Below the pieces are notes generated by a model. The model was given only the letters and a program-made list of their open reading frames with translations, made no database searches and was not told where the DNA came from. Positions 24,378-45,017 of a stretch of 64,000 bases of DNA are shown here, piece after piece. Positions within the stretch are counted from its first letter, which is position 1; each line of letters begins with the position of its first letter. The position numbers and the translations under genes are program-made. This DNA is from Nemertoderma westbladi (lineage: Eukaryota > Animalia > Xenacoelomorpha): the NCBI GenBank assembly GCA_032718475.1, contig JAUCBJ010007749.1:1-64000 (forward strand). Reading direction: 5' to 3'.

Positions 24378-27300
24378 CTATTTCCCACGTGAAAACAACC
24401 CTAATAACCCACTCACCACATGGCTTACAATTGAAAACTTTCTTGGTTTTCCACTTTTTGAACCATCCGTTTCATTTAAAGAGGTAACAACATTATTAGA
24501 AGAAACCCCACCCTCTACTTGCACACACTCCCATCCTGAGTCAGTTTCTTCAGGAATGGGATCGTTGTCTGAACTGCAGTTATCCATCTCTATATCTGGA
24601 GATTCCACATGTTGTATTTTATCTATCTCTATATCAGGAGATTCCACATGTTGTATTCTATCTATCTCTATATCTGGAGATTCCACATGTTGTATTTTAT
24701 CTATCTCTATATCTGGAGATTCATCATCTTGTATGTCATCTGTCTCTATAACATGAGATTCCTTATCAGTTTCTATATTAGGAGATTCCACATGTTGTAT
24801 TTTATCAGTCTCTCTAACTGGAGATTCGTCATGTTGTATGTTATCTGTCTCTATATCTGGAGATTCATCATGTTGTATGTTAATTGTCTCTATAACTGGA
24901 GATTCCTTATCAGTCTCTATATCTGGAGATTCCTTATCAGTCTCTATATCTGGAGATTCCTTATCCGTCTCTATATCTGGAGATTCCTTATGTTGTATAT
25001 TATCTGTCTCTATATCTAGAGATTCCACTTGTTGACTGTTATCTGTCTCTATATCTGGAGATTCCTTATCCGTCTCTATATCTGGAGATTCATCATGTTG
25101 TATGTTATCTGTCTCTATATCTGGAGATTCCACATGTTGTATGTTATCCGTCTCCATAACTGGAGATTCCACATGTTGTATATTATCAGTCTCTTTATCT
25201 GGAGATTCCACATGTTGTATGTTATCAGTCTCTATATCTGGAGATTTCACATGTTGTATTTTATTAGTCTCTATAACTGGAGATTCCTCATGTTGTATGT
25301 TATCAGTCTCTATATCTGGAGATTCATCATGTTGTATGTTATCTGTCTCTATAACTGGAGATTCCTTATCAGTCTCTATATCTGGAGATTCCTCATGTTC
25401 TATGTTAACCGTCTCTATATCTGGAGATTCCTTATGTTGTATTTTATCAGTCTCTATATCTGAAGATTCCACATGTTGTATTTTATCAGTCTCTATAACT
25501 GGAGATTCTTCATGTTGTATGTTAACCGTCTCTATATCTGGAGATTCCTTATGTTGTATTTTATCAGTCTCTATATCTGGAGATTCCACATGTTGTATTT
25601 TATCAGTCTCTCTAACTGGAGATTCGTCATGTTGTATGTTATCTGTCTCTATATCTGGAGATTCATCATGTTGCATGTTAATTGTCTCTATAACTGGAGA
25701 TTCCTTATCAGTCTCTATATCTGGAGATTCCTTATCAGTCTCTATATCTGGAGATTCCTTATCAGTCTCTATATCTGGAGATTCTTCACGTTCTATGTTA
25801 ACCGTCTCTACATCTGGAGATTCCTTATGTTGTATATTATCAGTCTCTATATCAGGAGATTCTTCATGTTGTATGTTATCCATCTCTATATCTGGAGATT
25901 CCACTTGTTGACTGTTATCAGTCTCTATATCTGGAGATTCCTTAGGCATCTCTATATCTGGAGATTCCTTATGTTGTATTTTATCAGTCTCCATAACTGG
26001 AGATTCCACATGTTGTATATTATCAGTCTCTATATCTGGAGATTCCTTATGTTGTATTTTATCAGTCTCTATAACTGGAGATTCCTCATGTTGTCTGTTA
26101 TCCATCTCTATATCTGGAGATTCCACTTGTTGACTGTTATCAGTCTCTATATCTGGAGATTCCTTATGCATCTCTATATCTGGAGATTCCTTATGTTGTA
26201 TTTTATCAGTCTCTATATCTGGAGATTCCACATGTTGTATATTATCAGTCTCTTTATCTGGAGATTCCACATGTTGTATTTTATCAGTCTCTATATCTGG
26301 AGATTCCACATGTTGTATGTTATCCGTCTCTATATCTGGAGATTCCTTATGTTGTATTTTATCAGTCTCTATATCTGGAGATTCCACATGTTGTATATTA
26401 TCAGTCTCTTTATCTGGAGATTCCACATGTTGTATTTTATCAGTCTCTATATCTGGAGATTCCACTTGTTGTATGTTATCTGTCTCTATATCTGGAGATT
26501 CCACATGTTGTATATTATCAGTCTCTTTATCTGGAGATTCCACATGTTGTATTTTATCAGTCTCTATATCTGGAGATTCCACATGTTGTATGTTATCCGT
26601 CTCTATATCTGGAGATTCCTTATGTTGTATTTTATCAGTCTCTATATCTGGAGATTCCACATGTTGTATATTATCAGTCTCTTTATCTGGAGATTCCACA
26701 TGTTGTATTTTATCAGTCTCTATATCTGGAGATTCCACTTGTTGTATGTTATCTGTCTCTATATCTGGAGATTCCACATGTTGTATGTTATCCGTCTCTA
26801 TATCTGGAGATTCCTTATGTTGTATTTTATCAGTCTCTATATCTGGAGATTCCACATGTTGTATATTATCAGTCTCTTTATCTGGAGATTCCACATGTTG
26901 TATTTTATCAGTCTCTATATCTGGAGATTCCACTTGTTGTATGTTATCTGTCTCTATATCTGGAGATTCCACATGTTGTATATTATCAGTCTCTTTATCT
27001 GGAGATTCCACATGTTGTATTTTATCAGTCTCTATATCTGGAGATTCCACATGTTGTATGTTATCCGTCTCTATATCTGGAGATTCCTTATGTTGTATTT
27101 TATCAGTCTCTATATCTGGAGATTCCACATGTTGTATATTATCAGTCTCTTTATCTGGAGATTCCACATGTTGTATTTTATCAGTCTCTATATCTGGAGA
27201 TTCCACTTGTTGTATGTTATCTGTCTCTATATCTGGAGATTCCACATGTTGTATATTATCAGTCTCTTTATCTGGAGATTCCACATGTTGTATGTTATCC

Positions 27301-30300
27301 ATCTCTATATCTGGAGATTCCTCATGTTGTATGTTATCCGTCTCTATATCTGGAGATTCATCATGTTGTATGTTATCTGTCTCTATATCTGGAGATTCCT
27401 CATGTTGTATGTTATCCATCTCTATATCTGGAGATTCCTCATGTTGTATATTATCAGTCTCTATATCTGGAGATTCATCATGTTGTATGTTATCTGTCTC
27501 TATAACTGGAGATTCCTTATCAGTCTCCATAACTGGAGATTCCACATGTTGTATGTTATCCATCTCTATATCTGGAGATTCCTCATGTTGTATGTTATCA
27601 GTCTCTATATCTGGAGATTCATCATCTTGTATGTCATCTGTCTCTATAATTTGAGATTCCTTACCAGTTTCTATATTAGGAGATTCCTCATGTTGTATAT
27701 TAGCAGTCTCTATATCTGGAGATTCCTCATGTTGTATGTTATTAGTCTCTATATCTGGAGATTCATCATCTTGTATGTCATCTGTCTCTATAACTTGAGA
27801 TTCCTTACCAGTTTCTATATTAGGAGATTCCTCATGTTGTATATTATCAGTCTCTATATCTGGAGATTCCTCATGTTGTATGTTATCCATCTCTATATCT
27901 GGAGATTCCTCATGTTGTATGTTATCAGTCTCTATATCTGGAGATTCATCATCTTGTATGTCATCTGTCTCTATAACTTGAGATTCCTTACCAGTTTCTA
28001 TATTAGGAGATTCCTCATGTTGTATATTATCAGTCTCTATATCTGGAGATTCCTCATGTTGTATGTTATTAGTCTCTATATCTGGAGATTCATCATCTTG
28101 TAAGTCATCTGTCTCTATAACTTGAGATTCCTTACCAGTTTCTATATTAGGAGATTCCCCATGTTGTATATTATCAGTCTCTATATCTGGAGATTCCACA
28201 TGTTGTATGTTATCCATCTCTATATCTGGAGATTTCTCATGTTGTATATTATCAGTCTCTATATCTGGAGATTCATCATGTTGTATGTTATCCGTTTCTA
28301 TATCTGGAGATTTTTTATCAGTCTCTATATCTGGAGATTCTTTATCCGTCTCTATATCTGGAGATTCTTTATCCGTCTCTATATCTGGAGATTTCTTATC
28401 CGTCTCTATATCTGGAGATTCATCATGTTGTATGTTATCCGTCTCTATATCTGGAGATTCCTCATGTTGTATGTTATCTGTCTCTATATCTGGAGATTCA
28501 TCATGTTGTATGTTATCAGTCTCTATATCTGGAGATTCATCATGTTGTATGTTATCTGTCTCTATAACTGGAGATTCCGTATCATTCTCTATTTCTGGAG
28601 ATTCCTCATGTTGTATATTATCAGTCTCCATATCTGGAGATTCCACATGTTGTATATTATCCGTCTCTATATCTGAAGATTTCTTATCAATCTCTATATC
28701 TGGAGATTCTTTATCAGTCTCTATATCTAGAGATTCCTCATGTTGTATATTATCAGTCTCTATATCTGGAGATTCATCATGTTGTATGTTATCTGTCTCT
28801 ATAACTGGAGATTCCTTATCATTCTCTATAACTGGAGATTCCTCATGTTGTATATTATCAGTCTCCATATCTGGAGATTCCACATGTTGTATATTATCAG
28901 TCTCTATATCTGGAGATTCCACATGTTGTATGTTATCCATCTCTATATCTGGAGATTCCTCATGTTGTATATTATCAGTCTCTATATCTGGAGATTCATC
29001 ATGTTGTATGTTATCTGTCTCTATAACTGGAGATTCCTTATCATTATCTATATCTGGAGATTCCACATGTTGTATTTTATCAGTCTCTATATCTGGAGAT
29101 TCCTTATGTTGTATTTTATCAGTCTCCATAACTGGAGATTCCCCATGTTGTCTGTTATCCGTCCCTATATCTGGAGATTCCTCATGTTGTAAATTATCAG
29201 TCTCTATATCTGGAGATTCCTTATCATTCTCTATTTCTGGAGATTCATCATGTGGTATATTATCAGTCTCTATATCTGGAGATTCATCATGTTGTATGTT
29301 ATCCGTCTCTATACCTGGAGATTCCTCATGTTGTATATTATCAGTCTCTATATCTGGAGATTCCTCATGTTGTATATTATCTGTCTCTATAACTGGAGAT
29401 TCGTCATGTTGTATGTTATCTGTCTCTATATCTGGAGATTCATCATGTTGTATGTTATCTGTCTCTATATCTGGAGATTCATCATGTTGTATATTATCAG
29501 TCTCTATATCTGGAGATTCCTCATGTAGTATGTTATCTGTCTCTATAACTGGAGATTCGTCATGTTGTATGTAATCTGTCTCTATAACTGGAGATTCCTT
29601 ATGTTGTATGTTATCAGTCTCTATATCTGGAGATTCCTCATGTTCTATGTTAACCGTCTCTATATCTGGAGATTCCACATGTTGTATTTTATCCGTCTCT
29701 ATAACCGGAGATTCCTCATGTTGTATATTATCAGTCTCTATATCTGGAGATTCCTCATGTTGTATATTATCTGTCTCTATATCTGGAGATTCATCATGTT
29801 GTATGTTATCTGTCTCTATATCTGGAGATTCCTTATGTTGTATATTATCAGTCTCTATATCTGGAGATTCCTCATGTTGTATGTTATCTGTCTCTATAAC
29901 TGGAGATTCGTCATGTTGTATGTTATCCGTATCTATATCGGGAGATTCCACTTGTTGACTGTTATCCGTATCTATATCTGGAGATTCCTCATGTTGTATC
30001 TTATCTGTCTCTATAACTGGAGATTCCTTATCCTTCTCTATATCTTGAGATCCCTTATCCGTCTCTATAACCGGAGATTCCTCATGATGTATGTTATCCG
30101 TCTCTATATCTGGAGATTCCACTTGTTGACTGTTATCTTTCTCTATATCTGTAGAATCCTCATGTTGTATGTTATCAGTCTCTATACCTGGAGATTCCTT
30201 ATGTTGTATTTTATCAGTCTCTATACCTGGAGAATCCTCATGTTGTATGTTATCAGTCTCTATATCTGGAGATTCGTTATGTTGTATTTTATCAGTCTCT

Positions 30301-33300
30301 ATATCTGGAGATTCCACATGTTGTATTTTATCAGTCTCTATATCTGGAGATTCCTTATGTTGTTTGTTATCCATCTCTATACCTGGAGAATCCTCATGTT
30401 GTATGTTATCAGTCTCTATATCTGGAGATTCCTTATGTTGTATTTTATCAGTCTCTATATCTGGAGATTCCACATGTTGTATTTTATCAGTCTCTATATC
30501 TGGAGATTCCACATGTTGTATTTTATCAGTCTCTATATCTGGAGATTCCACTTGTTGTATTTTATCAGTCTCTATACCTGGAGAATCCTCATGTTGTATG
30601 TTATCAGTCTCTATACCTGGAGATTCCTTATGTTGTATTTTATCAGTCTCTATACCTGGAGAATCCTCATGTTGTATGTTATCAGTTTCTATATCTGGAG
30701 ATTCCTTTTGTTGTATTTTATCAGTCTCTATATCTGGAGATTCCACATGTTGTATTTTATCAGTCTCTATATCTGGAGATTCCTTATGTTGTTTGTTATC
30801 CATCTCTATACCTGGAGAATCCCCATGTTGTATGTTATCAGTCTCTATATCTGGAGATTCATCATGTTGTATGTTATCAGTCTCTATATCTGGATATTCC
30901 TCATGTTGTATTTTATCAGTCTCTATAACTGGAGATTCCTTATGTTGTATTTTATCAGTCTCCATAACTGGAGATTTCACATCTTGTATATTATCAGTCT
31001 CTATATCTGGAGATTCCTTATCCATCTCTATATCTGGAGATTCCTTATGTTGTATTTTATCAGTCTCCATAACTGGAGATTCCACATGTTGTATATTATC
31101 AGTCTCTATATCTGGAGATTCCTTATCCATCTCTATTTCTGGAGATTCCTTATGTTGTATTTTATCAGTCTCCATAACTGGAGATTCCACATGTTGTATA
31201 TTATCAGTCTTTATATCTGGAGATTCCTTATGTTGTATGTTATCCATTTCTATATCTGGAGATTCCTTATGTTGTATGTTATCCATCTCTATATCTGGAG
31301 ATTCCACTTGTTGACTGTTATCAGTCTCTATATCTGGAGATTCCTCATGTTGTATGTTATCTTTCTCTATATCTGGAGATTCCTTATGTTGTATTTTATC
31401 AGTCTCTATAACTGGAGATTCCACATGTTGTATATTATCAGTCTCTATATCTGGAGATTCCTTTTCCATCTCTATATCTGGAGATTCCTTATGTTGTATT
31501 TTATCAGTCTCCATAACTGGAGATTCCACATGTTGTATATTATCAGTCTTTATATCTGGAGATTCCTTATGTTGTATGTTATCCATTTCTATATCTGGAG
31601 ATTCCTTATGTTGTATGTTATCCATCTCTATATCTGGAGATTCCACTTGTTGACTGTTATCAGTCTCTATATCTGGAGATTCCTCATGTTGTATGTTATC
31701 TTTCTCTATATCTGGAGATTCCTTATGTTGTATGTTATCCATCTCTATATCTGGAGATTCCACTTGTTGACTGTTATCAGTCTCTATATCTGGAGATTCC
31801 TCATGTTGTATGTTATCTTTCTCTATATCTGGAGATTCTTTATGTTGTATGTTATCCATCTCTATATCTGGAGATTCCACTTGTTGACTGTTATCAGTCT
31901 CTATATCTGGAGATTCCTCATGTTGTATGTTATCTTTCTCTATATCTGGAGATTCCTTATGTTGTATGTTATCCATCTCTATATCTGGAGATTCCACTTG
32001 TTGACTGTCATCAGTCTCTATATCTGGAGATTCCTTATCCATCTCTATATCTGGAGTTTCCTTATGTTGTATTTTATCAGTCTCCATAACTGGAGATTTC
32101 ACATCTTGTATATTATCAGTCTCTATATCTGGAGATTCCTTATGTTGTATGTTATCCATCTCTATATCTGGAGATTCCACTTGTTGACTGTCATCAGTCT
32201 CTATATCTGGAGATTCCTTATCCATCTCTATATCTGGAGTTTCCTTATGTTGTATTTTATCAGTCTCCATAACTGGAGATTTCACATGTTGTATATTATC
32301 AGTCTCTATATCTGGAGATTCCTCATGTTCTATGTTTTCCGTCTCTATATCTGGAGATTCCTCATGTTCTACATTATCAGTCTCTATATCTGGAAATTCC
32401 TCATGTTGTATGTTATCAGTCTCTACACCTGGAGAATCCTCATGTTGTCTGTTATCAGTCTCTATAACTGGAGATTCCTTATGTTGTATGTTATCAGTCT
32501 CTATATCTAGAGATTCCTCATGTTGTATGTTATCAGTCTCTATATCTAGAGATTCCACTTGTTGTAAGTTATCAGTCTCTATAACTGGAGTTTCTTTATC
32601 ATTATCTTTATCTGGAGATTCATCATGTTGTATGTTATCCGTCTCTATATCTGGAAATTCCTCATGTTGTATATTATCAGTCTCTATAACTGGAGATTCC
32701 TTATCATTCTCTATATTTGGGGATCCCTTATCAGTCTCTATAACTTGAGATTCCTCATGTTGTATGTTATTAGTCTCTATACCTGGAGAATCCTCATGTT
32801 CTCTGTTATCAGTCTCTATATCTGGAGATTCCTTATGTTGTATATTATCAGTCTCTATATCTGGAGATTCCTCATGTTCTACATTATCAGTCTCTATATC
32901 TGGAAATTCCTCATGTTGTATGTTATCAGTCTCTACACCTGGAGAATCCTCATGTTGTCTGTTATCAGTCTCTATAACTGGAGAGTCCTCATGTTGTATA
33001 TTATCAGTCTCTATAACTGGAGATTCCTTATCATTCTCTATATCTGGGGATCCCTTATCAGTCTCTATAACTTGAGATTCCTCATGTTGTATGTTATTAG
33101 TCTCTATACCTGGAGAATCCTCATGTTCTCTGTTATCAGTCTCTATATCTGGAGATTCCTTATGTTGTATATTATCAGTCTCTATACCTGGAGAATCCTC
33201 ATGTTGTCTGTTATCAGTCTCTATAACTGGAGAGTCCTCATGTTGTTTATTATCAGTCTCTATAACTGGAGATTCCTTATGTTGTATATTATCAGTCTCT

Positions 33301-36300
33301 ATATCTGGAGATTCCTTATGTTGTATATTATCAGTCTCTATATCTGGAAATTCCTCATGTTGTCTGTTATCAGTCTCTATAACTGGAGAGTCCTCATGTT
33401 GTTTATTATCAGTCTCTATAACTGGAGATTCCTTATGTTGTATATTATCAGTCTCTATATCTGGAGATTCCTTATGTTGTATATTATCAGTCTCTATATC
33501 TGGAAATTCCTCATGTTGTCTGTTATCAGTCTCTATAACTGGAGAGTCCTCATGTTGTTTATTATCAGTCTCTATAACTGGAGATTCCTTATGTTGTATG
33601 TTATCAGTCTCTATATCTGGAGATTCCACTTGTTGACTGTTATCTTTCTCTATATCTGGAGATTCCTTATCAGTCTCTATATCTGGAGATTCCTTATCAG
33701 TCTCTATATCTGGAGATTCCTTATCATTCTCTATAACTGGAGATTCCTTATCAGTCTCTATATCTGGAGATTCCTTATCAGTCTCTATATCTGGATATTC
33801 CTTATCAGTCTCTATATCTGGAGATTCCTTATCATTCTCTATAACTGGAGATTCCTTATCAGTCTCTGTATCTGGATATTCCTTATCTGTCTCTATAACT
33901 GGAGATTCCTTATCATTCTCTATAACTGGAGATTCATCATGTTGTATGTTATCAGTCTCTATATCTGGAGATTCATCATGTTGTATGTTATCAGTCTCTA
34001 TATCTGGAGATTCCTTATCATTCTCTATTTCTGGAGATTCATCATGTTGTATGTTATCAGTCTCTATATCTGGAGATTCCTTATCAGTCTTTATATCTGG
34101 AGATTCCTTATCAGTCTCTATATCTGGAGATTCATCATGTTGTATGTTATCAGTCTCTATATCTGGAGGTTCCTTATGTTGTATATTATCCGTCTCTATA
34201 TCTGGAGATTCCACTTGTTGACTGTTAGGCCTATCTGTCTCTATATCTGGAGATTCCTTATCAGTCTCTATATCTGGAGATTTCTTATCATTCTCTATAT
34301 CTGGAGATTCCTTATCAGTCTCTGTATCTGGATATTCCTTATCTGTCTCTATAACTGGAGATTCCTTATCATTCTCTATATTTGGAGATTCATCATGTTG
34401 TATGTTATCCGTCTCTATATCTGGAGATTCCTTATCTGTCTCTATATCTGGAGATTCCTTATCAGTCTCTATATCTGGAGATTTCTTATCATTCTCTATA
34501 TCTGGAGATTCCTTATCAGTCTCTGTATCTGGATATTCCTTATCTGTCTCTATAACTGGAGATTCCTTATCATTCTCTATATCTGGAGATTCATCATGTT
34601 GTATGTTATCCGTCTCTATATCTGGAGATTCCTTATCTGTCTCTATAACTGGAGATTCCTTATCTGTCTCTATATCTGGAGATTCCTTATCATTCTCTAT
34701 ATCTGGAGATTCCACTTGTTGACTGTTATCTGTCTCTATATCTGGAGATTCCTTATCAGTCTCTATATCTGGAGATTCCTTATCAGTCTCTGTATCAGGA
34801 GATTCCTTATCAGTCTCTATATCTGGAGATTCCTTATCTGTCTCTATATCTGGAGATTCCACTTGTTGACTGTTATCTGTCTCTATATCTGGAGATTCCT
34901 TATCAGTCTCTATATCTGGAGATTCCTTATCAGTCTCTATATCTGGAGATTCCTTATCAGTCTCTATATCTGGAGATTCCTTATCTGTCTCTATATCTGG
35001 AGATTCCACTTGTTGACTGTTATCAGTCTCTATAACTGGAGATTCTTTATCATTATCTTTATCTGGAGATTCATCATGTTGTATGTTATCCGTATCTATA
35101 TCGGGAGATTCCACTTGTTGACTGTTATCTTTCTCTGAATCAGGAGATTCCTTATCAGTCTCTATATCTGGAGATTCCTTATCTGTCTCTATATCTGGAG
35201 ATTCCACTTGTTGACTGTTATCAGTCTCTATAACTGGAGATTCTTTATCATTATCTTTATCTGGAGATTCATCATGTTGTATGTTATCCGTATCTATATC
35301 GGGAGATTCCACTTGTTGACTGTTATCTTTCTCTATATCTGGAGATTCCTTATCAGTCTCTATATCTGGAGATTCCACTTGTTGTAAGTTATCAGTCTCT
35401 ATAACTGGAGATTCTTTATCATTATCTTTATCTGGAGATTCATCATGTTGTATGTTATCCGTATCTATATCGGGAGATTCCACTTGTTGACTGTTATCTT
35501 TCTCTATATCTGGAGATTCCTTATCAGTCTCTATATCTGGAGATTCCACTTGTTGTAAGTTATCAGTCTCTATAACTGGAGATTCTTTATCATTATCTTT
35601 ATCTGGAGATTCATCATGTTGTATGTTATCCGTATCTATATCGGGAGATTCCACTTGTTGACTGTTATCTGTCTCTATATCTGGATATTCCTTATCAGTC
35701 TCTATATCTGGAGATTCCTTATCAGTCTCTATATCTGGAGATTCCTTATCCGTATCTATATCTGGAGATTCCACTTGTTGTAAGTTATCAGTCTCTATAA
35801 CTGGAGATTCTTTATCATTATCTTTATCTGGAGATTCATCATGTTGTATGTTATCAGTCTCTATATCGGGAGATTCCACTTGTTGACTGTTATCTGTCTC
35901 TATATCTGGAGATTCCTTATCAGTCTCTATATCTGGAGATTCCACTTGTTGTAAGTTATCAGTCTCTATAACTGGAGATTCTTTATCATTATCTTTATCT
36001 GGAGATTCATCATGTTGTATGTTATCAGTCTCTATATCGGGAGATTCCACTTGTTGACTGTTATCTGTCTCTATATCTGGAGATTCCTTATCAGTCTCTA
36101 TATCTGGAGATTCCTTATCCGTATCTATATCTGGAGATTCCACTTGTTGACTGTTATCCGTCTCTATATCTGGAGATTCCTTATCATTCTCTATATCTGG
36201 AGATTCCTCATGTTGTATGTTATCAGTCTCTATATCGGGAGATTCCTTATCATTCTCTATATCTGGAGATTCCTCATGTTGTATGTTATCAGTCTCTATA

Positions 36301-39300
36301 TCGGGAGATTCCACTTGTTGACTGTTATCTTTCTCTATATTTGGAGATTCCTTATCAGTCTCTATATCTGGAGATTCCACTTGTTGACTGTTATCTTTCT
36401 CTGAATCAGGAGATTCCTTATCAGTCTCTATATCTGGAGATTCCTTATCTGTCTCTATATCTGGAGATTCCACTTGTTGACTGTTATCAGTCTCTATAAC
36501 TGGAGATTCTTTATCATTATCTTTATCTGGAGATTCATCATGTTGTATGTTATCAGTCTCTATATCTGGAGATTCCTCATGTTGTACGTTATCCGTCTCT
36601 ATATCTGGAGATTCCTTATCATTCTCTATATCTGGAGATTCCTCATGTTGTATGTTATCAGTCTCTATATCGGGAGATTCCACTTGTTGACTGTTATCTT
36701 TCTCTATATTTGGAGATTCCTTATCAGTCTCTATATCTGGAGATTCCACTTGTTGACTGTTATCTTTCTCTATATCTGGAGATTCCTTATCAGTCTCTAT
36801 ATCTGGAGATTCCTTATCAGTCTCTATATCTGGAGATTCCTTATCAATCTCTGTATCTGGATATTCCTTATCAGTCTCTATATCTGGAGATTCCTTATCA
36901 TTCTCTATAACTGGAGATTCCTTATCATTCTCTATATCTGGAGATTCATCATGTTGTATGTTATCCGTCTCTATATCTGGAGATTCCACTTGTTGACTGT
37001 TAGGCCTATCTGTCTTTATATCTGGAGATTCCTTATCAGTCTCTATATCTGGAGATTCCTTATCAGTCTCTATATCTGGAGATTCCTTATCAGTCTCTGT
37101 ATCTGGAGATTCCTTATCTGTCTCTATATCTGGAGATTCCACTTGTTGACTGTTATCTGTCTCTATATCTGGAGATTCCTTATCAGTCTCTATATCTGGA
37201 GATTCCTTATCAGTCTCTATATCTGGAGATTCCTTATCAGTCTCTGTATCAGGAGATTCCTTATCAGTCTCTATATCTGGAGATTCCTTATCTGTCTCTA
37301 TATCTGGAGATTCCACTTGTTGACTGTTATCTGTCTCTATATCTGGAGATTCCTTATCAGTCTCTATATCTGGAGATTCCTTATCAGTCTCTATATCTGG
37401 AGATTCCTTATCAGTCTCTGTATCAGGATATTCCTTATCAGTCTCTATATCTGGAGATTCTTTATCTGTCTCTATATCTGGAGATTCCACTTGTTGACTG
37501 TTATCTGTCTCTATATCTGGAGATTCCTTATCAGTCTCTATATCTGGAGATTCCTTATCCGTCTCTATCACTGGAGATTCCTTATGTTGTATGTTATCTT
37601 TCTCTATATCTGGGGATTCCTTATCAGTCTCTATATCTGTAGAATCCTCATGTTGTATATTATCAGTCTCTATAACTGGATATTCCATATCATTCTCTAT
37701 ATCTGGAGATTCCTCATGTTGTATATTATCTGTCTCTATATCTGGAGATTCATCATGTTGTATATTATCAGTCTCTATATCTGGAGATTCCTTATCCGTC
37801 TCTATATCTGGAGATTCCACATGTTGTATATTATCCGTCTCTATAACTGGAGATTCCTCATGTTGTATATTATCAGTCTCTATATCTGGAGATTCCTTAT
37901 GTTGTATATTATCAGTCTCTATAACTGGATATTCCATATCATTCTCTATAACTGGAGATTCCTCCTGTTGTATATTATCAGTCTCTATATCTGGAGATTC
38001 CTCCTGTTGTATATTATCAGTCTCTATATCTGGAGATTCATCATGTTGTATGTTATCAGTCTCTAAAACTGGAGATTCATCATGTTGTATGTTATCCGTA
38101 TCTATATCTGGAGATTTCACTTGTTGACTGTTATCCGTCTCTATATCTGGAGATTCCACTTGTTGACTGTTATCAGTCTCTATATCTGGAGATTCCTTAT
38201 CATTCTCTATATCTGGAGATTCCTCATGTTGTATGTTATCAGTCTCTAAAACTGGAGATTCCTCATGTTGTATGTTATCAGTCTCTATATCTGGAGATTC
38301 CTCATGTTGTATGTTATCAGTCTCTATATCTGGAGATTCCTCATGTTGTATGTTATCAGTCTCTATATCTGGAGATTCCTCATGTTGTATGTTATCAGTC
38401 TCTATAACTTGAGATTCCACATGTTGTATGTTATCAGTCTCTATATCTGGAGATTCCTCATGTTGTATGTTATCAGTCTCTATATCTGGAGATTCCACTT
38501 GTTGACTGTTATCAGTCTCTATATCTGGAGATTCCTTATGTTGTACGTTATCCGTCTCTATATCTGGAGATTCCTTATCATTCTCTATAACTGGAAATTC
38601 CTCATGTTGTATATTATCAGTCTCTATATCTGGAGATTCCACTTGTTGACTGTTATCAGTCTCTATATCTGGAGATTCCTTATGTTGTACGTTATCCGTC
38701 TCTATATCTGGAGATTCCTCATGTTGTATATTATCAGTCTCTATATCTGGAGATTCCACTTGTTGACTGTTATCTGTCTCTATATCTGGAGATTCCTCAT
38801 CAGTCTCTATATCTGGAGATTCCTTATCAGTCTCTATATCTGGAGATTCCTCATGTTGTATGATATCCATCTCTATATCTGGAGATTCCTCATGTTCTAT
38901 GTTAACCGTCTCTATATCTGGAGATTCCTTATCAGTCTCTATATCTGGAGATTCCACATGTTGTATATTATCCGTCTCTATAACTGGAAATTCCTCATGT
39001 TGTATATTATCAGTCTCTATATCTGGAGATTCCACTTGTTGACTGTTATCTGTCTCTATATCTGGAGATTCCTCATCAGTCTCTATATCTGGAGATTCCT
39101 TATCAGTCTCTATATCTGGAGATTCCTCATGTTGTATGATATCCATCTCTATATCTGGAGATTCCTCATGTTCTATGTTAACCGTCTCTATATCTGGAGA
39201 TTCCTTATCAGTCTCTATATCTGGAGATTCCACTTGTTGTATGTTATCTGTCTCTATAACTGGAGATTCCTTATGTTGTATATTATCTGTCTCTATAACT

Positions 39301-42300
39301 GGAGATTCCTTATGTTGTATATTATCTGTCTCTATAACTGGAGATTCCACTTGTTGTATGTTATCTGTCTCTATAACTGGAGATTCCTTATCAGTCTCTA
39401 TATCTGGAGATTCATCATGTTGTATATTATCTGTCTCTATATCTGGAGATTCCACTTGTTGACTTTTATCTGTCTCTATATCTGGAGATTCCTTATCAGT
39501 CTCTATATCTGGAGATTCCACTTGTTGTATGTTATCTGTCTCTATAACTGGAGATTCCTTATGTTGTATATTATCTGTCTCTATAACTGGAGATTCCTTA
39601 TGTTGTATATTATCTGTCTCTATAACTGGAGATTCCTCATGTTGTATATTATCAGTCTCTATATCTGGAGATTTCACTTGTTGTATGTTATCTGTCTCTA
39701 TAACTGGAGATTCCTTATGTTGTATATTATCTGTCTCTATAACTGGAGATTCCTCATGTTGTATATTATCAGTCTCTATATCTGGAGATTCCACTTGTTG
39801 TATGTTATCTGTCTCTATAACTGGAGATTCCTTATGTTGTATATTATCTGTCTCTATATCTGGAGATTCCACTTGTTGACTGTTATCCGTATCTATATCT
39901 GGAGATTCCTCATGTTGTATGTTATCTGTCTCTATAACTGGAGATTCCTTATGTTGTATATTATCAGTCTCTATAACTGGAGATTCTTTATCATTATCTT
40001 TATCTGGAGATTCATCATGTTGTATGTTATCTGTCTCTATAACTGGAGATTCCTTATGTTGTATATTATCTGTCTCTATATCTGGAGATTCCTTATCATT
40101 CTCTATATCTGGAGATTCCTTATCAGTCTCTATATCTGGAGATTCCACTTGTTGTAAGTTATCAGTCTCTATAACTGGAGATTCTTTATCATTATCTTTA
40201 TCTGGAGATTCATCATGTTGTATGTTATCTGTCTCTATATCTGGAGATTCCTCATGTTGTATGTTATCTGTCTCTATAACTGGAGATTCCTTATGTTGTA
40301 TATTATCAGTCTCTATAACTGGAGATTCTTTATCATTATCTTTATCTGGAGATTCATCATGTTGTATGTTATCTGTCTCTATAACTGGAGATTCCTTATG
40401 TTGTATATTATCTGTCTCTATATCTGGAGATTCCTTATCATTCTCTATATCTGGAGATTCCTTATCAGTCTCTATATCTGGAGATTCCACTTGTTGTAAG
40501 TTATCAGTCTCTATAACTGGAGATTCTTTATCATTATCTTTATCTGGAGATTCATCATGTTGTATGTTATCCGTATCTATATCGGGAGATTCCACTTGTT
40601 GACTGTTATCTTTCTCTATATCTGGAGATTCCTTATCAGTCTCTATATCTGGAGATTCATCATGTTGTATGTTATCCGTCTCTATATCTGGAGATTCCAC
40701 TTGTTGACTGTTATCTGTCTCTATATCTGGAGATTCCTTATCATTCTCTATATCTGGAGATTCATCATGTTGTATGTTATCCGTCTCTATATCTGGAGAT
40801 TCCACTTGTTGACTGTTATCTGTCTCTATATCTGGAGATTCCTTATCATTCTCTATATCTGGAGATTCATCATGTTGTATATTATCAGTCTCTATATCTG
40901 GAGATTCATCATGTTGTATGTTATCCGTCTCTATATCTGGAGATTCCACTTGTTGACTGTTATCTGTCTCTGTATCTGGAGATTCCTTATCAGTCTCTAT
41001 ATCTTGAGTATCTTGAGATTCATTATGTTCTATGTTACCAGTCTCTAAACCTGATGATTCGTCAGATGGTTTGTTAACATCATCATCGCCATCAACATCA
41101 TCAACAATGTCGGGCCCTTCTTTTATGGTCTGCAAACACTTTTTGAGTCGCTTTATTATGCACTCAGCGTCATTCTGAGTCAAACCGAAAGCTACAGTGC
41201 AGAGCAAATAAGGAAAGTGCTGATAGATGTTGTCATGGGAATCAAAGGTTATGAATTTGTGACATCCGATAAACTTCGCTTGTGTGTTGGACTCAACAAT
41301 TCGAATACCAAACATGTTAAAATGAGATAACATGGAATCCAAACGAGAGGCCTTGGAACCCAAAAGAGATGCTTTGCATGCAGTTAGTTTCGCGGCGGAC
41401 TGGTATGTTTTTTGAGTGGCCTTCTGTTCTGTTGGTTGGGTGCCATTGTCGTCTGTTGGTTGGCTGTCGTTGTGGTCTGTTGGTTGGTTGCCATTGTGGT
41501 CTGTTGTTCGGGTGTTGTTGTTGTCTGTTGTTGGTTGGGTTTCGTTCTGATATATCTGATTAGACAATGTCATTGCTATAGATATTCCGTTGTGGGGAGT
41601 TTCTAAAACTTTCTCACCCAACTGCGCTGCTAAAGATGTTAGCTCACCCCTAAAATAACTATAAACGTATTTATGGCTACGCAATAATCCTAGGTACCCG
41701 TCCCTTCCCATAGATAAAAGTGTTATAAATACATCTACAATGGGGGCGGCACTGGCCCTACCAGGGTATGTTCCGCATACAAGTGAGATTAACTCCTCTT
41801 TGGGAGAGGCAATTATCGCTCCTCCTATTGGAACCATTAAATTTGTATGAGTACTCTGAACCACTAAGTCTATAAGACCATTATGTGAAGCCTCATCTAC
41901 AAGTTGGCATAATTTATTGTTTAGTAGGCCGTGGTCGTTGTTTACCAGATGAAACACACTAAACCGTCGACAAATCAATCCGACCAGTTCTAATTGGTCT
42001 GCAACGCTAGGAGCGAAGCTTGACGTAGTCGAGAGAACGCAGAGGACCAGCGACCGATTTATCTCCAAGAGTTTATTCTCTATCTCCAAGATATCGCTAG
42101 TTAATTCGTCTCCAACAAAATTATTTTCAACCACAACCGGTTCCATTCCCGCTGCGGTAATGAATTTGTAACAGGATTTCTGTTCATTTCGTGGCAAAAT
42201 TACGTATTTCGCGGTCGGTTTTTTACCTTTAAGTGCCAATAAACAAAGTGTCAGCGCCATTTCCGTAGCTTCAGGGACAATTACGCAACCTGAGATGGAG

Positions 42301-42698
42301 TTTATCCCGCATAGTTTGAATGCGTCTAATACAAGGTCGTTAGCGAGTTTATTTAGGAGACTAGAACCAGACGCTTTGGGATGGGATGCAGCTATATCCT
42401 CTGATAGACTTATACCGTGTGTCAACCGGAAGTGACGTCTTTCGACGAGATCAGAGTATAAACGGCCCCCCCTCTCGCCGGCGGCGATTTTGCCAGGTAA
42501 GTTCTTGGTATCCATGGCAGACAGCTGATTTAGTAATAACTCAATGGTAACATCGTCCCAACCTTGGCTAGGGATTTTTCTGTGTTCTAGAAGGTTACGA
42601 ATTAGGTTGTATTGCGATTGGAGTCCTTCCTGACATTGCTGGATGTTTGTTTTTGGGACAAGGCTTTCTAAAAAGGGAAACCCATTGGAATCAGTCAT
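24378..42698 (-). CDS. Intronless SepSecS-like pseudoenzyme fused to a giant acidic repeat (~6,106 aa from ATG 42698)
   Basis: The N-terminal ~530 aa align along their whole length with O-phosphoseryl-tRNA(Sec) selenium transferase (GWDD.TIELLL, GERGGR, GSSLLNK, QKSC, GDEL, STTS.FAP, MVPIGGAIIA, YPGRAS, TPHN.ISIAMTL). The PLP-Lys motif reads QSTHTN rather than QSLDKN. The frame is open for 18.3 kb. The ORF-track start at 42728 is a TTG. Confidence 0.85.
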   Translation of the reverse strand: MTDSNGFPFLESLVPKTNIQQCQEGLQSQYNLIRNLLEHRKIPSQGWDDVTIELLLNQLSAMDTKNLPGKIAAGERGGRLYSDLVERRHFRLTHGISLSEDIAASHPKASGSSLLNKLANDLVLDAFKLCGINSISGCVIVPEATEMALTLCLLALKGKKPTAKYVILPRNEQKSCYKFITAAGMEPVVVENNFVGDELTSDILEIENKLLEINRSLVLCVLSTTSSFAPSVADQLELVGLICRRFSVFHLVNNDHGLLNNKLCQLVDEASHNGLIDLVVQSTHTNLMVPIGGAIIASPKEELISLVCGTYPGRASAAPIVDVFITLLSMGRDGYLGLLRSHKYVYSYFRGELTSLAAQLGEKVLETPHNGISIAMTLSNQIYQNETQPTTDNNNTRTTDHNGNQPTDHNDSQPTDDNGTQPTEQKATQKTYQSAAKLTACKASLLGSKASRLDSMLSHFNMFGIRIVESNTQAKFIGCHKFITFDSHDNIYQHFPYLLCTVAFGLTQNDAECIIKRLKKCLQTIKEGPDIVDDVDGDDDVNKPSDESSGLETGNIEHNESQDTQDIETDKESPDTETDNSQQVESPDIETDNIQHDESPDIETDNIQHDESPDIENDKESPDIETDNSQQVESPDIETDNIQHDESPDIENDKESPDIETDNSQQVESPDIETDNIQHDESPDIETDKESPDIEKDNSQQVESPDIDTDNIQHDESPDKDNDKESPVIETDNLQQVESPDIETDKESPDIENDKESPDIETDNIQHKESPVIETDNIQHDESPDKDNDKESPVIETDNIQHKESPVIETDNIQHEESPDIETDNIQHDESPDKDNDKESPVIETDNLQQVESPDIETDKESPDIENDKESPDIETDNIQHKESPVIETDNIQHDESPDKDNDKESPVIETDNIQHKESPVIETDNIQHEESPDIDTDNSQQVESPDIETDNIQHKESPVIETDNIQQVESPDIETDNIQHEESPVIETDNIQHKESPVIETDNIQQVKSPDIETDNIQHEESPVIETDNIQHKESPVIETDNIQHKESPVIETDNIQQVESPDIETDKESPDIETDKSQQVESPDIETDNIQHDESPDIETDKESPVIETDNIQQVESPVIETDNIQHKESPVIETDNIQHKESPVIETDNIQQVESPDIETDKESPDIETVNIEHEESPDIEMDIIQHEESPDIETDKESPDIETDEESPDIETDNSQQVESPDIETDNIQHEEFPVIETDNIQHVESPDIETDKESPDIETVNIEHEESPDIEMDIIQHEESPDIETDKESPDIETDEESPDIETDNSQQVESPDIETDNIQHEESPDIETDNVQHKESPDIETDNSQQVESPDIETDNIQHEEFPVIENDKESPDIETDNVQHKESPDIETDNSQQVESPDIETDNIQHEESPDIETDNIQHVESQVIETDNIQHEESPDIETDNIQHEESPDIETDNIQHEESPDIETDNIQHEESPVLETDNIQHEESPDIENDKESPDIETDNSQQVESPDIETDNSQQVKSPDIDTDNIQHDESPVLETDNIQHDESPDIETDNIQQEESPDIETDNIQQEESPVIENDMEYPVIETDNIQHKESPDIETDNIQHEESPVIETDNIQHVESPDIETDKESPDIETDNIQHDESPDIETDNIQHEESPDIENDMEYPVIETDNIQHEDSTDIETDKESPDIEKDNIQHKESPVIETDKESPDIETDKESPDIETDNSQQVESPDIETDKESPDIETDKEYPDTETDKESPDIETDKESPDIETDKESPDIETDNSQQVESPDIETDKESPDIETDKESPDTETDKESPDIETDKESPDIETDKESPDIETDNSQQVESPDIETDKESPDTETDKESPDIETDKESPDIETDKESPDIKTDRPNSQQVESPDIETDNIQHDESPDIENDKESPVIENDKESPDIETDKEYPDTEIDKESPDIETDKESPDIETDKESPDIEKDNSQQVESPDIETDKESPNIEKDNSQQVESPDIETDNIQHEESPDIENDKESPDIETDNVQHEESPDIETDNIQHDESPDKDNDKESPVIETDNSQQVESPDIETDKESPDIETDKESPDSEKDNSQQVESPDIETDKESPNIEKDNSQQVESPDIETDNIQHEESPDIENDKESPDIETDNIQHEESPDIENDKESPDIETDNSQQVESPDIDTDKESPDIETDKESPDIETDNSQQVESPDIETDNIQHDESPDKDNDKESPVIETDNLQQVESPDIETDKESPDIETDNSQQVESPDIETDNIQHDESPDKDNDKESPVIETDNLQQVESPDIDTDKESPDIETDKESPDIETDKEYPDIETDNSQQVESPDIDTDNIQHDESPDKDNDKESPVIETDNLQQVESPDIETDKESPDIEKDNSQQVESPDIDTDNIQHDESPDKDNDKESPVIETDNLQQVESPDIETDKESPDIEKDNSQQVESPDIDTDNIQHDESPDKDNDKESPVIETDNSQQVESPDIETDKESPDIETDKESPDSEKDNSQQVESPDIDTDNIQHDESPDKDNDKESPVIETDNSQQVESPDIETDKESPDIETDKESPDIETDKESPDIETDKESPDIETDNSQQVESPDIETDKESPDIETDKESPDTETDKESPDIETDKESPDIETDNSQQVESPDIENDKESPDIETDKESPVIETDKESPDIETDNIQHDESPDIENDKESPVIETDKEYPDTETDKESPDIENDKKSPDIETDKESPDIETDKESPDIETDNIQHDESPNIENDKESPVIETDKEYPDTETDKESPDIENDKKSPDIETDKESPDIETDRPNSQQVESPDIETDNIQHKEPPDIETDNIQHDESPDIETDKESPDIKTDKESPDIETDNIQHDESPEIENDKESPDIETDNIQHDESPDIETDNIQHDESPVIENDKESPVIETDKEYPDTETDKESPVIENDKESPDIETDKEYPDIETDKESPDIETDKESPVIENDKESPDIETDKESPDIETDKESPDIEKDNSQQVESPDIETDNIQHKESPVIETDNKQHEDSPVIETDNRQHEEFPDIETDNIQHKESPDIETDNIQHKESPVIETDNKQHEDSPVIETDNRQHEEFPDIETDNIQHKESPDIETDNIQHKESPVIETDNKQHEDSPVIETDNRQHEDSPGIETDNIQHKESPDIETDNREHEDSPGIETNNIQHEESQVIETDKGSPDIENDKESPVIETDNIQHEDSPVIETDNRQHEDSPGVETDNIQHEEFPDIETDNVEHEESPDIETDNIQHKESPDIETDNREHEDSPGIETNNIQHEESQVIETDKGSPNIENDKESPVIETDNIQHEEFPDIETDNIQHDESPDKDNDKETPVIETDNLQQVESLDIETDNIQHEESLDIETDNIQHKESPVIETDNRQHEDSPGVETDNIQHEEFPDIETDNVEHEESPDIETENIEHEESPDIETDNIQHVKSPVMETDKIQHKETPDIEMDKESPDIETDDSQQVESPDIEMDNIQHKESPDIETDNIQDVKSPVMETDKIQHKETPDIEMDKESPDIETDDSQQVESPDIEMDNIQHKESPDIEKDNIQHEESPDIETDNSQQVESPDIEMDNIQHKESPDIEKDNIQHEESPDIETDNSQQVESPDIEMDNIQHKESPDIEKDNIQHEESPDIETDNSQQVESPDIEMDNIQHKESPDIEMDNIQHKESPDIKTDNIQHVESPVMETDKIQHKESPDIEMEKESPDIETDNIQHVESPVIETDKIQHKESPDIEKDNIQHEESPDIETDNSQQVESPDIEMDNIQHKESPDIEMDNIQHKESPDIKTDNIQHVESPVMETDKIQHKESPEIEMDKESPDIETDNIQHVESPVMETDKIQHKESPDIEMDKESPDIETDNIQDVKSPVMETDKIQHKESPVIETDKIQHEEYPDIETDNIQHDESPDIETDNIQHGDSPGIEMDNKQHKESPDIETDKIQHVESPDIETDKIQQKESPDIETDNIQHEDSPGIETDKIQHKESPGIETDNIQHEDSPGIETDKIQQVESPDIETDKIQHVESPDIETDKIQHVESPDIETDKIQHKESPDIETDNIQHEDSPGIEMDNKQHKESPDIETDKIQHVESPDIETDKIQHNESPDIETDNIQHEDSPGIETDKIQHKESPGIETDNIQHEDSTDIEKDNSQQVESPDIETDNIHHEESPVIETDKGSQDIEKDKESPVIETDKIQHEESPDIDTDNSQQVESPDIDTDNIQHDESPVIETDNIQHEESPDIETDNIQHKESPDIETDNIQHDESPDIETDNIQHEESPDIETDNIQHEESPVIETDKIQHVESPDIETVNIEHEESPDIETDNIQHKESPVIETDYIQHDESPVIETDNILHEESPDIETDNIQHDESPDIETDNIQHDESPDIETDNIQHDESPVIETDNIQHEESPDIETDNIQHEESPGIETDNIQHDESPDIETDNIPHDESPEIENDKESPDIETDNLQHEESPDIGTDNRQHGESPVMETDKIQHKESPDIETDKIQHVESPDIDNDKESPVIETDNIQHDESPDIETDNIQHEESPDIEMDNIQHVESPDIETDNIQHVESPDMETDNIQHEESPVIENDKESPVIETDNIQHDESPDIETDNIQHEESLDIETDKESPDIEIDKKSSDIETDNIQHVESPDMETDNIQHEESPEIENDTESPVIETDNIQHDESPDIETDNIQHDESPDIETDNIQHEESPDIETDNIQHDESPDIETDKKSPDIETDKESPDIETDKESPDIETDKKSPDIETDNIQHDESPDIETDNIQHEKSPDIEMDNIQHVESPDIETDNIQHGESPNIETGKESQVIETDDLQDDESPDIETNNIQHEESPDIETDNIQHEESPNIETGKESQVIETDDIQDDESPDIETDNIQHEESPDIEMDNIQHEESPDIETDNIQHEESPNIETGKESQVIETDDIQDDESPDIETNNIQHEESPDIETANIQHEESPNIETGKESQIIETDDIQDDESPDIETDNIQHEESPDIEMDNIQHVESPVMETDKESPVIETDNIQHDESPDIETDNIQHEESPDIEMDNIQHEESPDIETDNIQHDESPDIETDNIQHEESPDIEMDNIQHVESPDKETDNIQHVESPDIETDNIQQVESPDIETDKIQHVESPDKETDNIQHVESPDIETDKIQHKESPDIETDNIQHVESPDIETDKIQHVESPDKETDNIQHVESPDIETDNIQQVESPDIETDKIQHVESPDKETDNIQHVESPDIETDKIQHKESPDIETDNIQHVESPDIETDNIQQVESPDIETDKIQHVESPDKETDNIQHVESPDIETDKIQHKESPDIETDNIQHVESPDIETDKIQHVESPDKETDNIQHVESPDIETDNIQQVESPDIETDKIQHVESPDKETDNIQHVESPDIETDKIQHKESPDIETDNIQHVESPDIETDKIQHVESPDKETDNIQHVESPDIETDKIQHKESPDIEMHKESPDIETDNSQQVESPDIEMDNRQHEESPVIETDKIQHKESPDIETDNIQHVESPVMETDKIQHKESPDIEMPKESPDIETDNSQQVESPDIEMDNIQHEESPDIETDNIQHKESPDVETVNIEREESPDIETDKESPDIETDKESPDIETDKESPVIETINMQHDESPDIETDNIQHDESPVRETDKIQHVESPDIETDKIQHKESPDIETVNIQHEESPVIETDKIQHVESSDIETDKIQHKESPDIETVNIEHEESPDIETDKESPVIETDNIQHDESPDIETDNIQHEESPVIETNKIQHVKSPDIETDNIQHVESPDKETDNIQHVESPVMETDNIQHVESPDIETDNIQHDESPDIETDKESPDIETDNSQQVESLDIETDNIQHKESPDIETDKESPDIETDKESPDIETDKESPVIETINIQHDESPDIETDNIQHDESPVRETDKIQHVESPNIETDKESHVIETDDIQDDESPDIEIDKIQHVESPDIEIDRIQHVESPDIEIDKIQHVESPDIEMDNCSSDNDPIPEETDSGWECVQVEGGVSSNNVVTSLNETDGSKSGKPRKFSIVSHVVSGLLGLFSRGK
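24575..41050 (-). repeat. Coding minisatellite of 39-bp (ESPDIETDNIQHx) and 27-bp (ESPDIETDK) units over ~16.5 kb, with higher-order duplications
   Basis: The core TCTCTATATCTGGAGATTC recurs throughout. All length variants keep the frame. Block duplications are visible, e.g. 276-bp offset (38860/39136) and 327-bp offset (32764/33091). Confidence 0.98.
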
Positions 42699-42941
42699 AG
42701 TTATGATATAATTCAATTCTTTGATCAAATTTAAACTTCATAATTAGGATTTATCATCGTAAGTATAAGTTGATCCAATTCGCCATAAAATATGCTTTCG
42801 AGGCATTTGCGATGAGACGTGGTAATTTGCATTATATTATTTTACTTTTTACATTAATCTATGAAACAGACAGCTCGATATCTGGATCTTTGGGGAACAG
42901 TATTATTACTAAATAAGAACTAAGGATTGGAACTAAGAACT

Positions 42942-43681
42942 AAGGGCCGGATTTAGAGTGGTGGGGTGGCCTGGGGCCGGGTCAGTGGTGGGGGGCCTGG
43001 GCTCAACTGTATACCTTTCAAAGAAACCTGAATGTAGATGTAAAAATTTGGAAATTTCTGGAAATTTCCTATACATTTTCCGGAAAATTCCTATTTTATT
43101 AATTATTTTATTTAGCTCATTCTGAAAACATATAGTAAAACACAAGTAGAGTAAACAAAACACTAGAGACAATGGATTTCTGCTTAGATGTGTTTAGGTG
43201 GTTCGTTGTCTTGTCTCTTGTGGTCGTAACTACGGATGAAATATACTTTTCCGGAAATTTCCGAAATTTCCTTGAAAAACATTTTTCAGGAAAACTCACA
43301 TCCCTATATATTAGACGTGGAAATTATGAATTTGAAACATGTTCCTGTTTATATCCGTATAAAAATATCTGATCCAAAAATGCCCAATTGAAATTGAAAG
43401 TGAAAAAAATTTACTTTCATAAGCTACAAAAATATTTACTGTTTTTCACACTAACTTTTTGTTTTAATTTTTCATATGGCAAAATTCAAAATTGCCATGT
43501 TCGGTTTCAGTTCGTTTCCAGTTCGGCTCCTCGGCTCCTCTATAGTTTGGTCGATCCCTATAGTTGTGGGATCGTTGTGGGGGGCCCCTGTGGTGGGGGG
43601 CCCCTGTGGTGGGGGGCCTGGGGCCTCGGCCACTTCGCCCTTCGCTCCCCCCCCCCCCCCCCCCCCCTAAATACGGCCCTG
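42942..43681. mobile_element. hAT-like MITE just upstream of the SepSecS-like gene, possibly with a nested element (~43040-43305)
   Basis: AGGGCCGGATTTAG ... CTAAATACGGCCCTG terminal inverted repeats and GGGGGCC subterminal repeats. No clean TSD was seen. Confidence 0.6.
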
Positions 43682-44475: not shown

Positions 44476-45017
44476 TTAACTATAGTGCTGCACCATTAAC
44501 TATAGTGCTGCACCATTAACTATAGTGCTGCACCATTAACTATAGTGCTGCACCATTAACTATAGTGCCGCGCCATTAACTATAGTGCCGCGCCATTAAC
44601 TATAGTGCTGCACCATTAACTATAGTGCTGCACCATTAACTATAGTGCTGCACCATTAACTATAGTGCTGCACCATTAACTATAGTGCTGCACCATTAAC
44701 TATAGTGCTGCACCATTAACTATAGTGCTGCACCATTAACTATAGTGCTGCACCATTAACTATAGTGCAGCACCTTTAACTATAGTGCTGCACCATTAAC
44801 TATAGTGCTGCACCATTAACTATAGTGCTGCACCATTAACTATAGTGCTGCACCATTAACTATAGTGCTGCACCATTAACTATAGTGCTGCACCATTAAC
44901 TATAGTGCTGCACCATTAACTATAGTGCTGCACCATTAACTATAGTGCTGCACCATTAACTATAGTGCTGCACCATTAACTATAGTGCTGCACCATTAAC
45001 TTTAGTGCTGCGCCATT
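44476..45017. repeat. 20-bp minisatellite (TATAGTGCTGCACCATTAAC), ~27 near-perfect copies
   Basis: Directly visible; it abuts the broken end of a LINE relic. Confidence 0.98.

Follow-up and report, generated by a model that had tools for sequence, protein, structure and literature searches.

SepSecS is a tRNA-dependent PLP enzyme, and K284 of the human protein is its PLP lysine (PMC3541580, PMC11047290). In the archaeal enzyme K278A abolishes activity, R94, Q102 and R307 recognise the phosphate of phosphoserine, the PLP ring is held between A249 and H166, G140 touches the phosphate of PLP, and N-terminal helices build the tetramer (PMC2275076). By numbering offsets, these archaeal residues map to human K284, R97, Q105, R313, A254, Q172 and G145. 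The P-loop of the human enzyme spans G96 to K107, and the mutants R398A, R398E and F396V are inactive (PMC10164584). In mammalian SEPSECS an acidic helix at the C-terminus also blocks tRNA sites, and the C-terminal extensions of invertebrate SepSecS are variable (PMC11602143).

Pseudoenzymes as a class are well known. The trypanosome AdoMetDC prozyme and the DHS paralogue have, like the protein described here, an intact fold, a lost catalytic residue and a kept interface; unlike it, they have an active partner that is known and no giant tail. The fold-type-I subunit SPTLC1/LCB1 lacks the PLP lysine while its fold and interface are kept, and it too has an active partner and no giant tail. Enzymes have also been reused as structural proteins, the S- and delta-crystallins being examples to which the present case can be likened, and long low-complexity repeat tails, often encoded in one exon, occur in AHNAK, Futsch, the neurofilament heavy chain and fused S100 proteins. 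Sec-pathway genes kept apart from Sec synthesis include SPS1 (PMC4561486) and the SecS of Apis mellifera (PMC2500217). SPS1 belongs to another enzyme family, however, and the text passages on the bee gene describe neither active-site loss nor fusion (PMC2500217). No SepSecS paralogue is named in the accessible text of PMC12936836. Our literature searches, which covered mostly the main texts of papers outside subscription, listed no dead or duplicated SepSecS and no fusion of SepSecS to a giant acidic array.

We analysed a window of 64,000 nucleotides from Nemertoderma westbladi (GCA_032718475.1, contig JAUCBJ010007749.1, positions 1 to 64,000). On its minus strand a stop-free frame of 6,106 codons runs over 24378–42698, and the first 529 codons of this frame (41112–42698) are a SepSecS-derived head:

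24378..42698, minus strand: the whole frame, 6,106 aa, ~695 kDa, pI ~4.05; no intron needed
41112..42698, minus strand: the SepSecS-derived head, residues 1–529 (Pfam, human SepSecS match, AlphaFold2, Foldseek)
41364..41540, minus strand: in-frame low-complexity insertion of 24-bp repeats, ~residues 387–445, in a loop that has insertions in other SepSecS too

A sequence-only reading of this DNA had described a SepSecS paralogue with a dismantled active site and an unbroken frame. Its statement that the head is free of frameshifts and stops is correct: the 529 minus-strand codons hold no stop, while the plus-strand reading of the same region has many. The interval it gave, ending at 41110, is too short. 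The frame continues to 24378 (6,106 aa), so that a 5,577-residue acidic tail sharing the head's frame had been left out, and it is most likely this tail that best accounts for the head's retention.

Three sequencing runs (X1, X2 and X3, from two samples and two studies, any of which may be the window's own source) each gave one contig over ~40975–42993, covering the head and the head-tail junction with no differing letters and no gaps. An assembly error in the head and a sequencing error at the lysine codon are both ruled out by these contigs, which match the window base for base; reads with AAA at 41844–41846 had been named as an outcome that would overturn the dead-enzyme claim, and all three contigs have ACA there, as in the window. 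The head-tail junction is thus covered, while the length (16 kb) and continuity of the repeat array behind it rest on the window assembly, as no contig spans the array.

By sequence and predicted fold, the head is assigned to the SepSecS family. It matches Pfam PF05889 with an E-value of 2.4e-99 (333 bits) and human SepSecS with an E-value of 1.4e-117. AlphaFold2, given a 50-row alignment, produced a model with a pLDDT of 86 and a pTM of 0.84, in which pLDDT is below 50 over residues 392–445 only, and the top Foldseek matches of this model are human, mouse and archaeal SepSecS structures, with a TM-score (target) of up to 0.96 to human. The match to PF05889 and to the solved structures extends across the entire fold, so the full-length SepSecS fold claimed from the letters is borne out by Pfam, PDB match and predicted fold alike. 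Window numbering equals human numbering + 1 over residues 7–380, and window residue 451 aligns with human 389; substitutions are given below in human numbering. The insertion was considered as an intron and rejected, having no splice-donor or acceptor pattern; the stretch with pLDDT below 50 (392–445) falls within it. In a tree of 83 rows built by a quick method, the head is a long branch (1.9) in a weakly supported animal group, and its placement is unsure. Working SepSecS share with the head the fold and domain order at ~40–51% identity, and the predicted dimer interface and N-terminal extension are kept. Relative to them, the head has no PLP lysine, has lost the P-loop Arg/Gln, the ring-packing Ala and the discriminator Arg, and has gained a 59-residue insertion and the 5,577-residue acidic tail.

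Parts of the head with lost residues include:

42375..42410, minus strand: P-loop equivalent (human 96–107, limits from PMC10164584) with G96S, R97L, G99E and Q105H; S98 and K107 kept
42261..42263, minus strand: G145E, at a helix end that would bind the PLP phosphate (archaeal Gly140 mapped via numbering offsets); G in 190/190 listed homologues
41928..41942, minus strand: NNDHG for NNAYG, that is A254D (ring-packing Ala) and Y255H, with N252 kept (alignment)
41844..41849, minus strand: D283H and K284T, the Schiff-base lysine gone (alignment, codons)
41319..41327, minus strand: SHF for FTR, that is F396S, T397H and R398F in helix 14, a tRNA discriminator contact (alignment; mutants in PMC10164584)

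For comparison we used 190 distinct homologues, drawn from 120 matches listed of 284 and 120 of 250 in a search of proteins up to 3,357 aa. Nine residues, K284, D283, G96, R97, Q105, G145, D171, A254 and Y255, are invariant in all 190 listed homologues, and the window differs at all nine. F396 is present in 179/190 and R398 in 183/190; the head has S and F. It keeps R75, S98, Q172, N252 and R313 unchanged. The top 150 of 1,908 distant representatives have the lysine in 145 cases, with a gap in three, a misaligned R in one and a threonine in one; R398 varies in this set (R in 100 of 134 ungapped rows). The motifs reported by the sequence-only reading (GISLSED..HPK, NNDHG, SSFAPS and SHF) are all found in the head, as are its codons ACA at 41844–41846 and CAT at 41847–41849, each one base from a codon for the canonical residue. 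The change it wrote as QSLDKN to QSTHTN needs one correction: the H and second T (D283H, K284T) are real departures, but the T in third place is a common invertebrate state (alignment A1).

Of the features by which an active SepSecS is recognised, then, the lysine is a threonine, R97 and Q105 of the phosphate site are L and H with R313 kept, and F396 and R398 are both replaced. K284T by itself would be expected to end Sep-to-Sec catalysis, as archaeal K278A does, and A254D and G145E would leave less room in the PLP pocket. With several changes, each at a site required for activity, the head is likely catalytically dead as judged from its residues. Annotating it as a functioning Sec synthase would be wrong, since the defining catalytic features are lacking.

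Some residual chemistry or ligand binding could be imagined, through PLP bound without a covalent link, a different lysine, or a site for anions formed by R75, S98, Q172, N252 and R313, all of which are unchanged. The threonine row among the distant representatives gives this idea a precedent of sorts. It is P0234, a database SepSecS of the fungus Gonapodya prolifera, with the same K-to-T change; Gonapodya is Sec-using, and its lysine goes unmentioned in the accessible text of the source (bioRxiv 10.1101/314781). P0234, however, keeps R97, Q105, G145, D283, F396 and R398, and its K-to-T may be a read error. Archaeal K278A is inactive (PMC2275076), human R398A and F396V are each inactive (PMC10164584), and A254D and G145E put acids at PLP contacts, all of which makes retained chemistry very improbable.

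A dead enzyme may be a decaying one, and we compared where the losses fall with what neutral change would produce. Among functional sites defined from the literature 8/12 are lost, against 23/111 other columns conserved at ≥95% (Fisher p = 0.0017), and with S174, S393 and T397 added the count is 9/15 (p = 0.0026), a test weakened by the list having been compiled after the changes were known. At near-invariant columns the head scores 0.75, below all 190 listed homologues (minimum 0.90), while at moderately conserved columns its agreement with consensus is 0.56, within the 0.51–0.72 of nine divergent working SepSecS. The lineage itself is fast. A neighbouring proteasome beta-3 gene has lost 13/88 near-invariant columns, mostly conservatively, so part of the head's 31/123 is background. 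At 30 of the 31 lost positions a single base change separates the codon from a canonical one, which suggests shallow divergence.

In a neutral simulation, the head coding sequence was subjected to random point mutation at several levels, each run 1,500 times. The 21% loss elsewhere corresponds to 0.107 changes per site; at this level at least 8/12 functional sites were lost in 1 of 1,500 runs, and zero stops were likewise seen in 1 of 1,500. At 0.3–0.57 per site, where losing 8/12 becomes likely, 13–18 stops are expected and none of 1,500 runs was stop-free. An excess of only 0.025–0.05 per site leaves the head stop-free in 6–25% of runs; slight recent neutral change on a fast background could therefore yield an open head, yet without the functional-site excess. 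The concentration of losses at functional sites together with zero stops means that uniform neutral decay cannot yield both.

The same comparison can be made in the tail, which consists of a repeat array and a short unique end:

24579..40987, minus strand: array of 464 units of 27 or 39 bp, of types ESPDIETDK and ESPDIETDNIQHE
24522..24551, minus strand: acidic stretch ending W-E-C-V, a candidate ATG8-binding (LIR) motif by motif likeness
24381..24440, minus strand: C-terminal 15-residue hydrophobic segment with basic flanks, mean hydropathy 1.85

After residue 529 the tail has 5,577 residues, of which 34% are D or E, with a net charge of -1576 and 430 S/T-P sites. All 464 unit anchors share one frame, with no off-frame spacing among 463; three spacings are irregular, at 45, 45 and 54 bases. 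When the distinct units of 27 and 39 bases, 180 in all, are joined in a spanning tree, there are 228 changes, for which 8.1 stops are expected (8.7 with the observed mutation spectrum) and none is seen (P ~2e-4, an approximate figure that takes changes as independent). Five other tandem arrays in the window have off-frame spacings of 11/47, 57/171, 33/47, 23/24 and 6/6 and stops in all six frames, although the units of the last three are themselves of a length not divisible by three. Neither head nor tail contains a stop or frameshift. Amino acid changes within the tail are unsuppressed (pN/pS of 0.79 and 1.24, no constraint at the amino acid level), as expected if length and charge outweigh sequence. 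Long plus-strand frames over the array were rejected as antisense shadows (31–119 stops).

The frame terminates in a unique, non-repeat tip. Its W-E-C-V is a putative LIR motif, and the hydrophobic C-terminal segment could, from its composition, serve as a membrane anchor or form an amphipathic helix; by motif likeness, the two together would suit a tail-anchored autophagy receptor. Folding the last 200 residues as a single sequence was uninformative (pLDDT 46). Pfam gave no match above cut-off on three pieces of the tail, an Atlas search with the last 340 aa gave no match, and the tail accordingly has no sequence likeness to the crystallins or to the giant repeat proteins named above.

These data bear on the reading that the locus is a young, unexpressed pseudogene: a copy of a fast-lineage SEPSECS that lost constraint recently and gained an in-frame satellite, and in which stops have not yet arrived. 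Such a history would fit the nearly uniform single-base steps, the high background of the lineage, a tail pN/pS near 1 and the ability of 27- and 39-bp units to hold frame by length alone. It would also fit our failure to find an orthologue. None was close among the matches listed (120 of 284 and 120 of 250; proteins ≤3,357 aa), where the top identity is 51%, nor in the top 150 of 1,908 distant representatives; pattern searches gave 81 matches with none confirmed, a further search gave none, and none of the window's four proteins is in the protein collection searched. What makes recent decay distinctly unlikely is that 8/12 functional sites were lost in 0 of 1,500 simulated runs at levels up to 0.076 per site, and that the tail, unlike the control arrays, lacks the ~8 expected stops and any off-frame indels and ends its frame in the unique tip. 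As far as can be judged from residues and a predicted model, then, the head has what characterises a pseudoenzyme, an enzyme fold with catalytic residues lost, and the simulations and repeat analysis argue that frame and fold were kept by selection. The earlier claim of dead catalysis on an intact, selected fold is to that extent supported by the functional-site losses, the simulations and the frame-keeping tail.

If the fold was kept, its oligomer interface is a candidate for the reason. A homodimer of residues 1–390 was predicted with a score of 0.75 (best of three controls 0.00), with at least 92% of contacts shared and pLDDT of at least 83, a pass that may be memory, since SepSecS dimers have already been solved. 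The mark used was passed by 21/30 microbial homo-pairs and 0/23 single chains, and in eukaryotes by 17/29 pairs (animals 7/16; 1/7 without an older solved relative) and 0/30 single chains. At the predicted interface 27/30 near-invariant columns are kept, compared with 56/78 elsewhere in residues 1–390, a difference that is not significant (p = 0.07); two of the three interface changes are the active-site residues G145E and D283H. The homodimer interface of SepSecS is thus represented in the head by these 27 columns and by a predicted dimer that is possibly memory. The tetramer-packing helices are present, with consensus kept at 8/12 positions in alpha2 and 13/16 in alpha4, as in divergent working enzymes, and at a slightly lower 6/11 in alpha1. 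The proposal that the head is an oligomerisation scaffold is therefore plausible on the model: the kept interface columns and the predicted dimer speak for it, while the possible memory in the dimer prediction takes some of that weight away.

A kept interface could also serve a regulator of a working SepSecS: the dead chain would join the oligomers of the enzyme, where its acidic tail would block tRNA-Sec binding like an enlarged helix 16, or it would play the part of a prozyme-like partner. Along with the dimer interface, the head keeps R75 and R313, by which the site of the partner subunit is completed, and trypanosome dead paralogues do regulate active enzymes. In SepSecS itself some protomers are catalytic and others are not, and tRNA sites are blocked by an acidic helix at the C-terminal end (PMC10164584, PMC11602143). 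A tail of 5,577 residues, however, far exceeds what blocking a site would need, R97 and Q105 are lost, and R26 and R271, which serve in docking, are replaced, though motifs of this kind are little conserved between species. We consider a regulatory role quite improbable.

Our preferred reading, to which we give a probability of roughly 55%, is that this is a selected pseudoenzyme whose head oligomerises giant polyanionic chains into a structural protein. The dead, folded head would self-associate as a dimer or tetramer like its parent, producing a star of two to four disordered chains with ~1,600 net negative charges each. Such a star could bind cations or basic proteins, or serve as a spacer or gel, and at their far ends the chains may be held to a membrane by the hydrophobic C-terminal tip. 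The source of the tail would be the C-terminal extension of SepSecS, which varies and is often acidic; the variability of invertebrate C-terminal ends makes such an origin by expansion plausible, and this expansion may have disabled the enzyme first. Mammalian helix 16 is likewise an acidic extension past the last helix of the fold, but it is a mammalian innovation of ~17 residues on an active enzyme, whereas here 464 repeats follow a dead one and no sequence likeness was shown.

The origin of the gene is a separate matter. It is probably a duplicate rather than the sole copy, and if it is a retrocopy the signs are equivocal: it occupies one exon and has no poly(A) run within 700 bases after the stop, and its neighbours are intron-poor, so an intronless head gene need not be a retrocopy. 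The neighbours, proteasome beta-3 and AKAP17A, match animal families, the best matches of beta-3 (61–63%) including many lophotrochozoans. The alternative is that the gene is the genome's only SEPSECS, in a lineage that lost selenocysteine and recycled the orphan enzyme as a structural hub, with the mechanism of the preferred reading and a different origin. In X1–X3, with one contig each, no second locus with at least 80% DNA identity to the head was found, a threshold that a more diverged working copy could escape. Proteasome beta-3 has one exon and AKAP17A two, so the lack of introns fits an original gene as well. Sec is retained in most animals, which counts against a sole copy. Animal lineages have nonetheless lost Sec, and Apis mellifera is reported to keep SecS without selenoproteins (PMC2500217); Sec-less insects and nematodes, on the other hand, usually delete or pseudogenise SecS (PMC2500217, PMC4114682). 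Rfam gave no matches in the window, which thus holds no SECIS or tRNA-Sec. Taken together, we regard a sole copy as an unlikely origin. A more elaborate version is doubtful as a whole: that a Sec-less animal recycled its sole Sec synthase as a dead tetramer hub, giving a polyanion star of ~2.8 MDa whose four tips would carry a putative autophagy-type motif and a membrane anchor, with the PLP and tRNA sites actively plugged by acidic or bulky residues under selection.

If the preferred reading is true, this is the first SepSecS pseudoenzyme findable in the literature searched, a tRNA-dependent PLP enzyme turned assembly module with an acidic C-terminal end grown more than 300-fold relative to human helix 16. 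The head would then be a natural test that separates residues for folding and oligomerisation, which are kept, from those for catalysis, which are lost. Should the genome have no second copy, it would follow that an animal lineage has lost selenocysteine without this having been recognised. A survey of 874 SepSecS orthologues retained only proteins of 300–600 aa, and so could not include a giant form (PMC11602143). SepSecS counts as a marker dedicated to the selenocysteine trait, which genome surveys score by its presence (PMC4114682), and a Sec-incapable copy with 333 bits against the family model would mislead trait surveys and pipelines.

Some observations on the sequencing runs stand apart from the above. 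Read depth in the first repeat bin is ~500 times that of the head in X1 and X3 and ~200 times in X2, where depth is not to be equated with copy number. Run X6 gave no contig on the control region. Contigs of a further run, X5 (recorded as 'DNA?'), have no cover over 41152–42915, a gap that is evidence neither way. One of them joins AKAP17A exon 2 to exon 1 over a GT-AG intron with no mismatches, and the run looks like spliced RNA of the window's species.

Threonine occupies the position of the PLP Schiff-base lysine not only in the window head but also, by alignment, in the SepSecS of Gonapodya prolifera (P0234, KXS16986.1), a fungus described as Sec-using in bioRxiv 10.1101/314781. In P0234, R97, Q105, G145, D283, F396 and R398 are all retained; its threonine may reflect an error in the reads, or else have arisen independently. 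The protein is 1,130 aa long with a long low-complexity tail, and is perhaps a fused gene model. The insect SepSecS of Adelges cooleyi (P0185) aligns with a changed P-loop (G99E, D100N, K107N), despite which R97, Q105 and K284 are retained.

Other features of the window are as follows.

536-1996, putative non-LTR retrotransposon protein fragment
2133-3639, non-coding tandem array
3678-4295, putative non-LTR retrotransposon protein fragment
4460-4868, non-coding tandem array
5966-7433 and 14339-14771 (-), AKAP17A-like gene, two coding exons
8572-9330 (-), putative non-LTR retrotransposon protein fragment
~42940-43650, many-copy dispersed repeat directly upstream of the SepSecS-head gene
44476-45017, non-coding tandem array
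47639-48874 (+), putative non-LTR retrotransposon protein fragment
49951-52245, non-coding tandem array
52619-52898, non-coding tandem array
53409-59084, non-coding tandem array
~61000-61600 (+), putative non-LTR retrotransposon protein fragment
63030-63647 (+), proteasome beta-3 gene, single exon

The tandem arrays have units within 20-48 bases, and five of the six served as frame controls for the acidic tail array. The five protein fragments are endonuclease- and reverse-transcriptase-like, which we take to resemble non-LTR retrotransposon proteins; the sole domain match in a Pfam search was a sub-threshold one to DUF6451, at 3678-4295. By eye, the G/C-rich segments at each end of the dispersed repeat resemble the terminal inverted repeats of a small DNA transposon.

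A 6.9-kb GT-AG intron separates the AKAP17A-like coding exons, and this splice is present in a contig from X5, a run recorded as 'DNA?'. The proteasome beta-3 protein is only ~58% identical to those of other animals, which share ~78% among themselves; a rapidly evolving lineage or a diverged duplicate would account for this.
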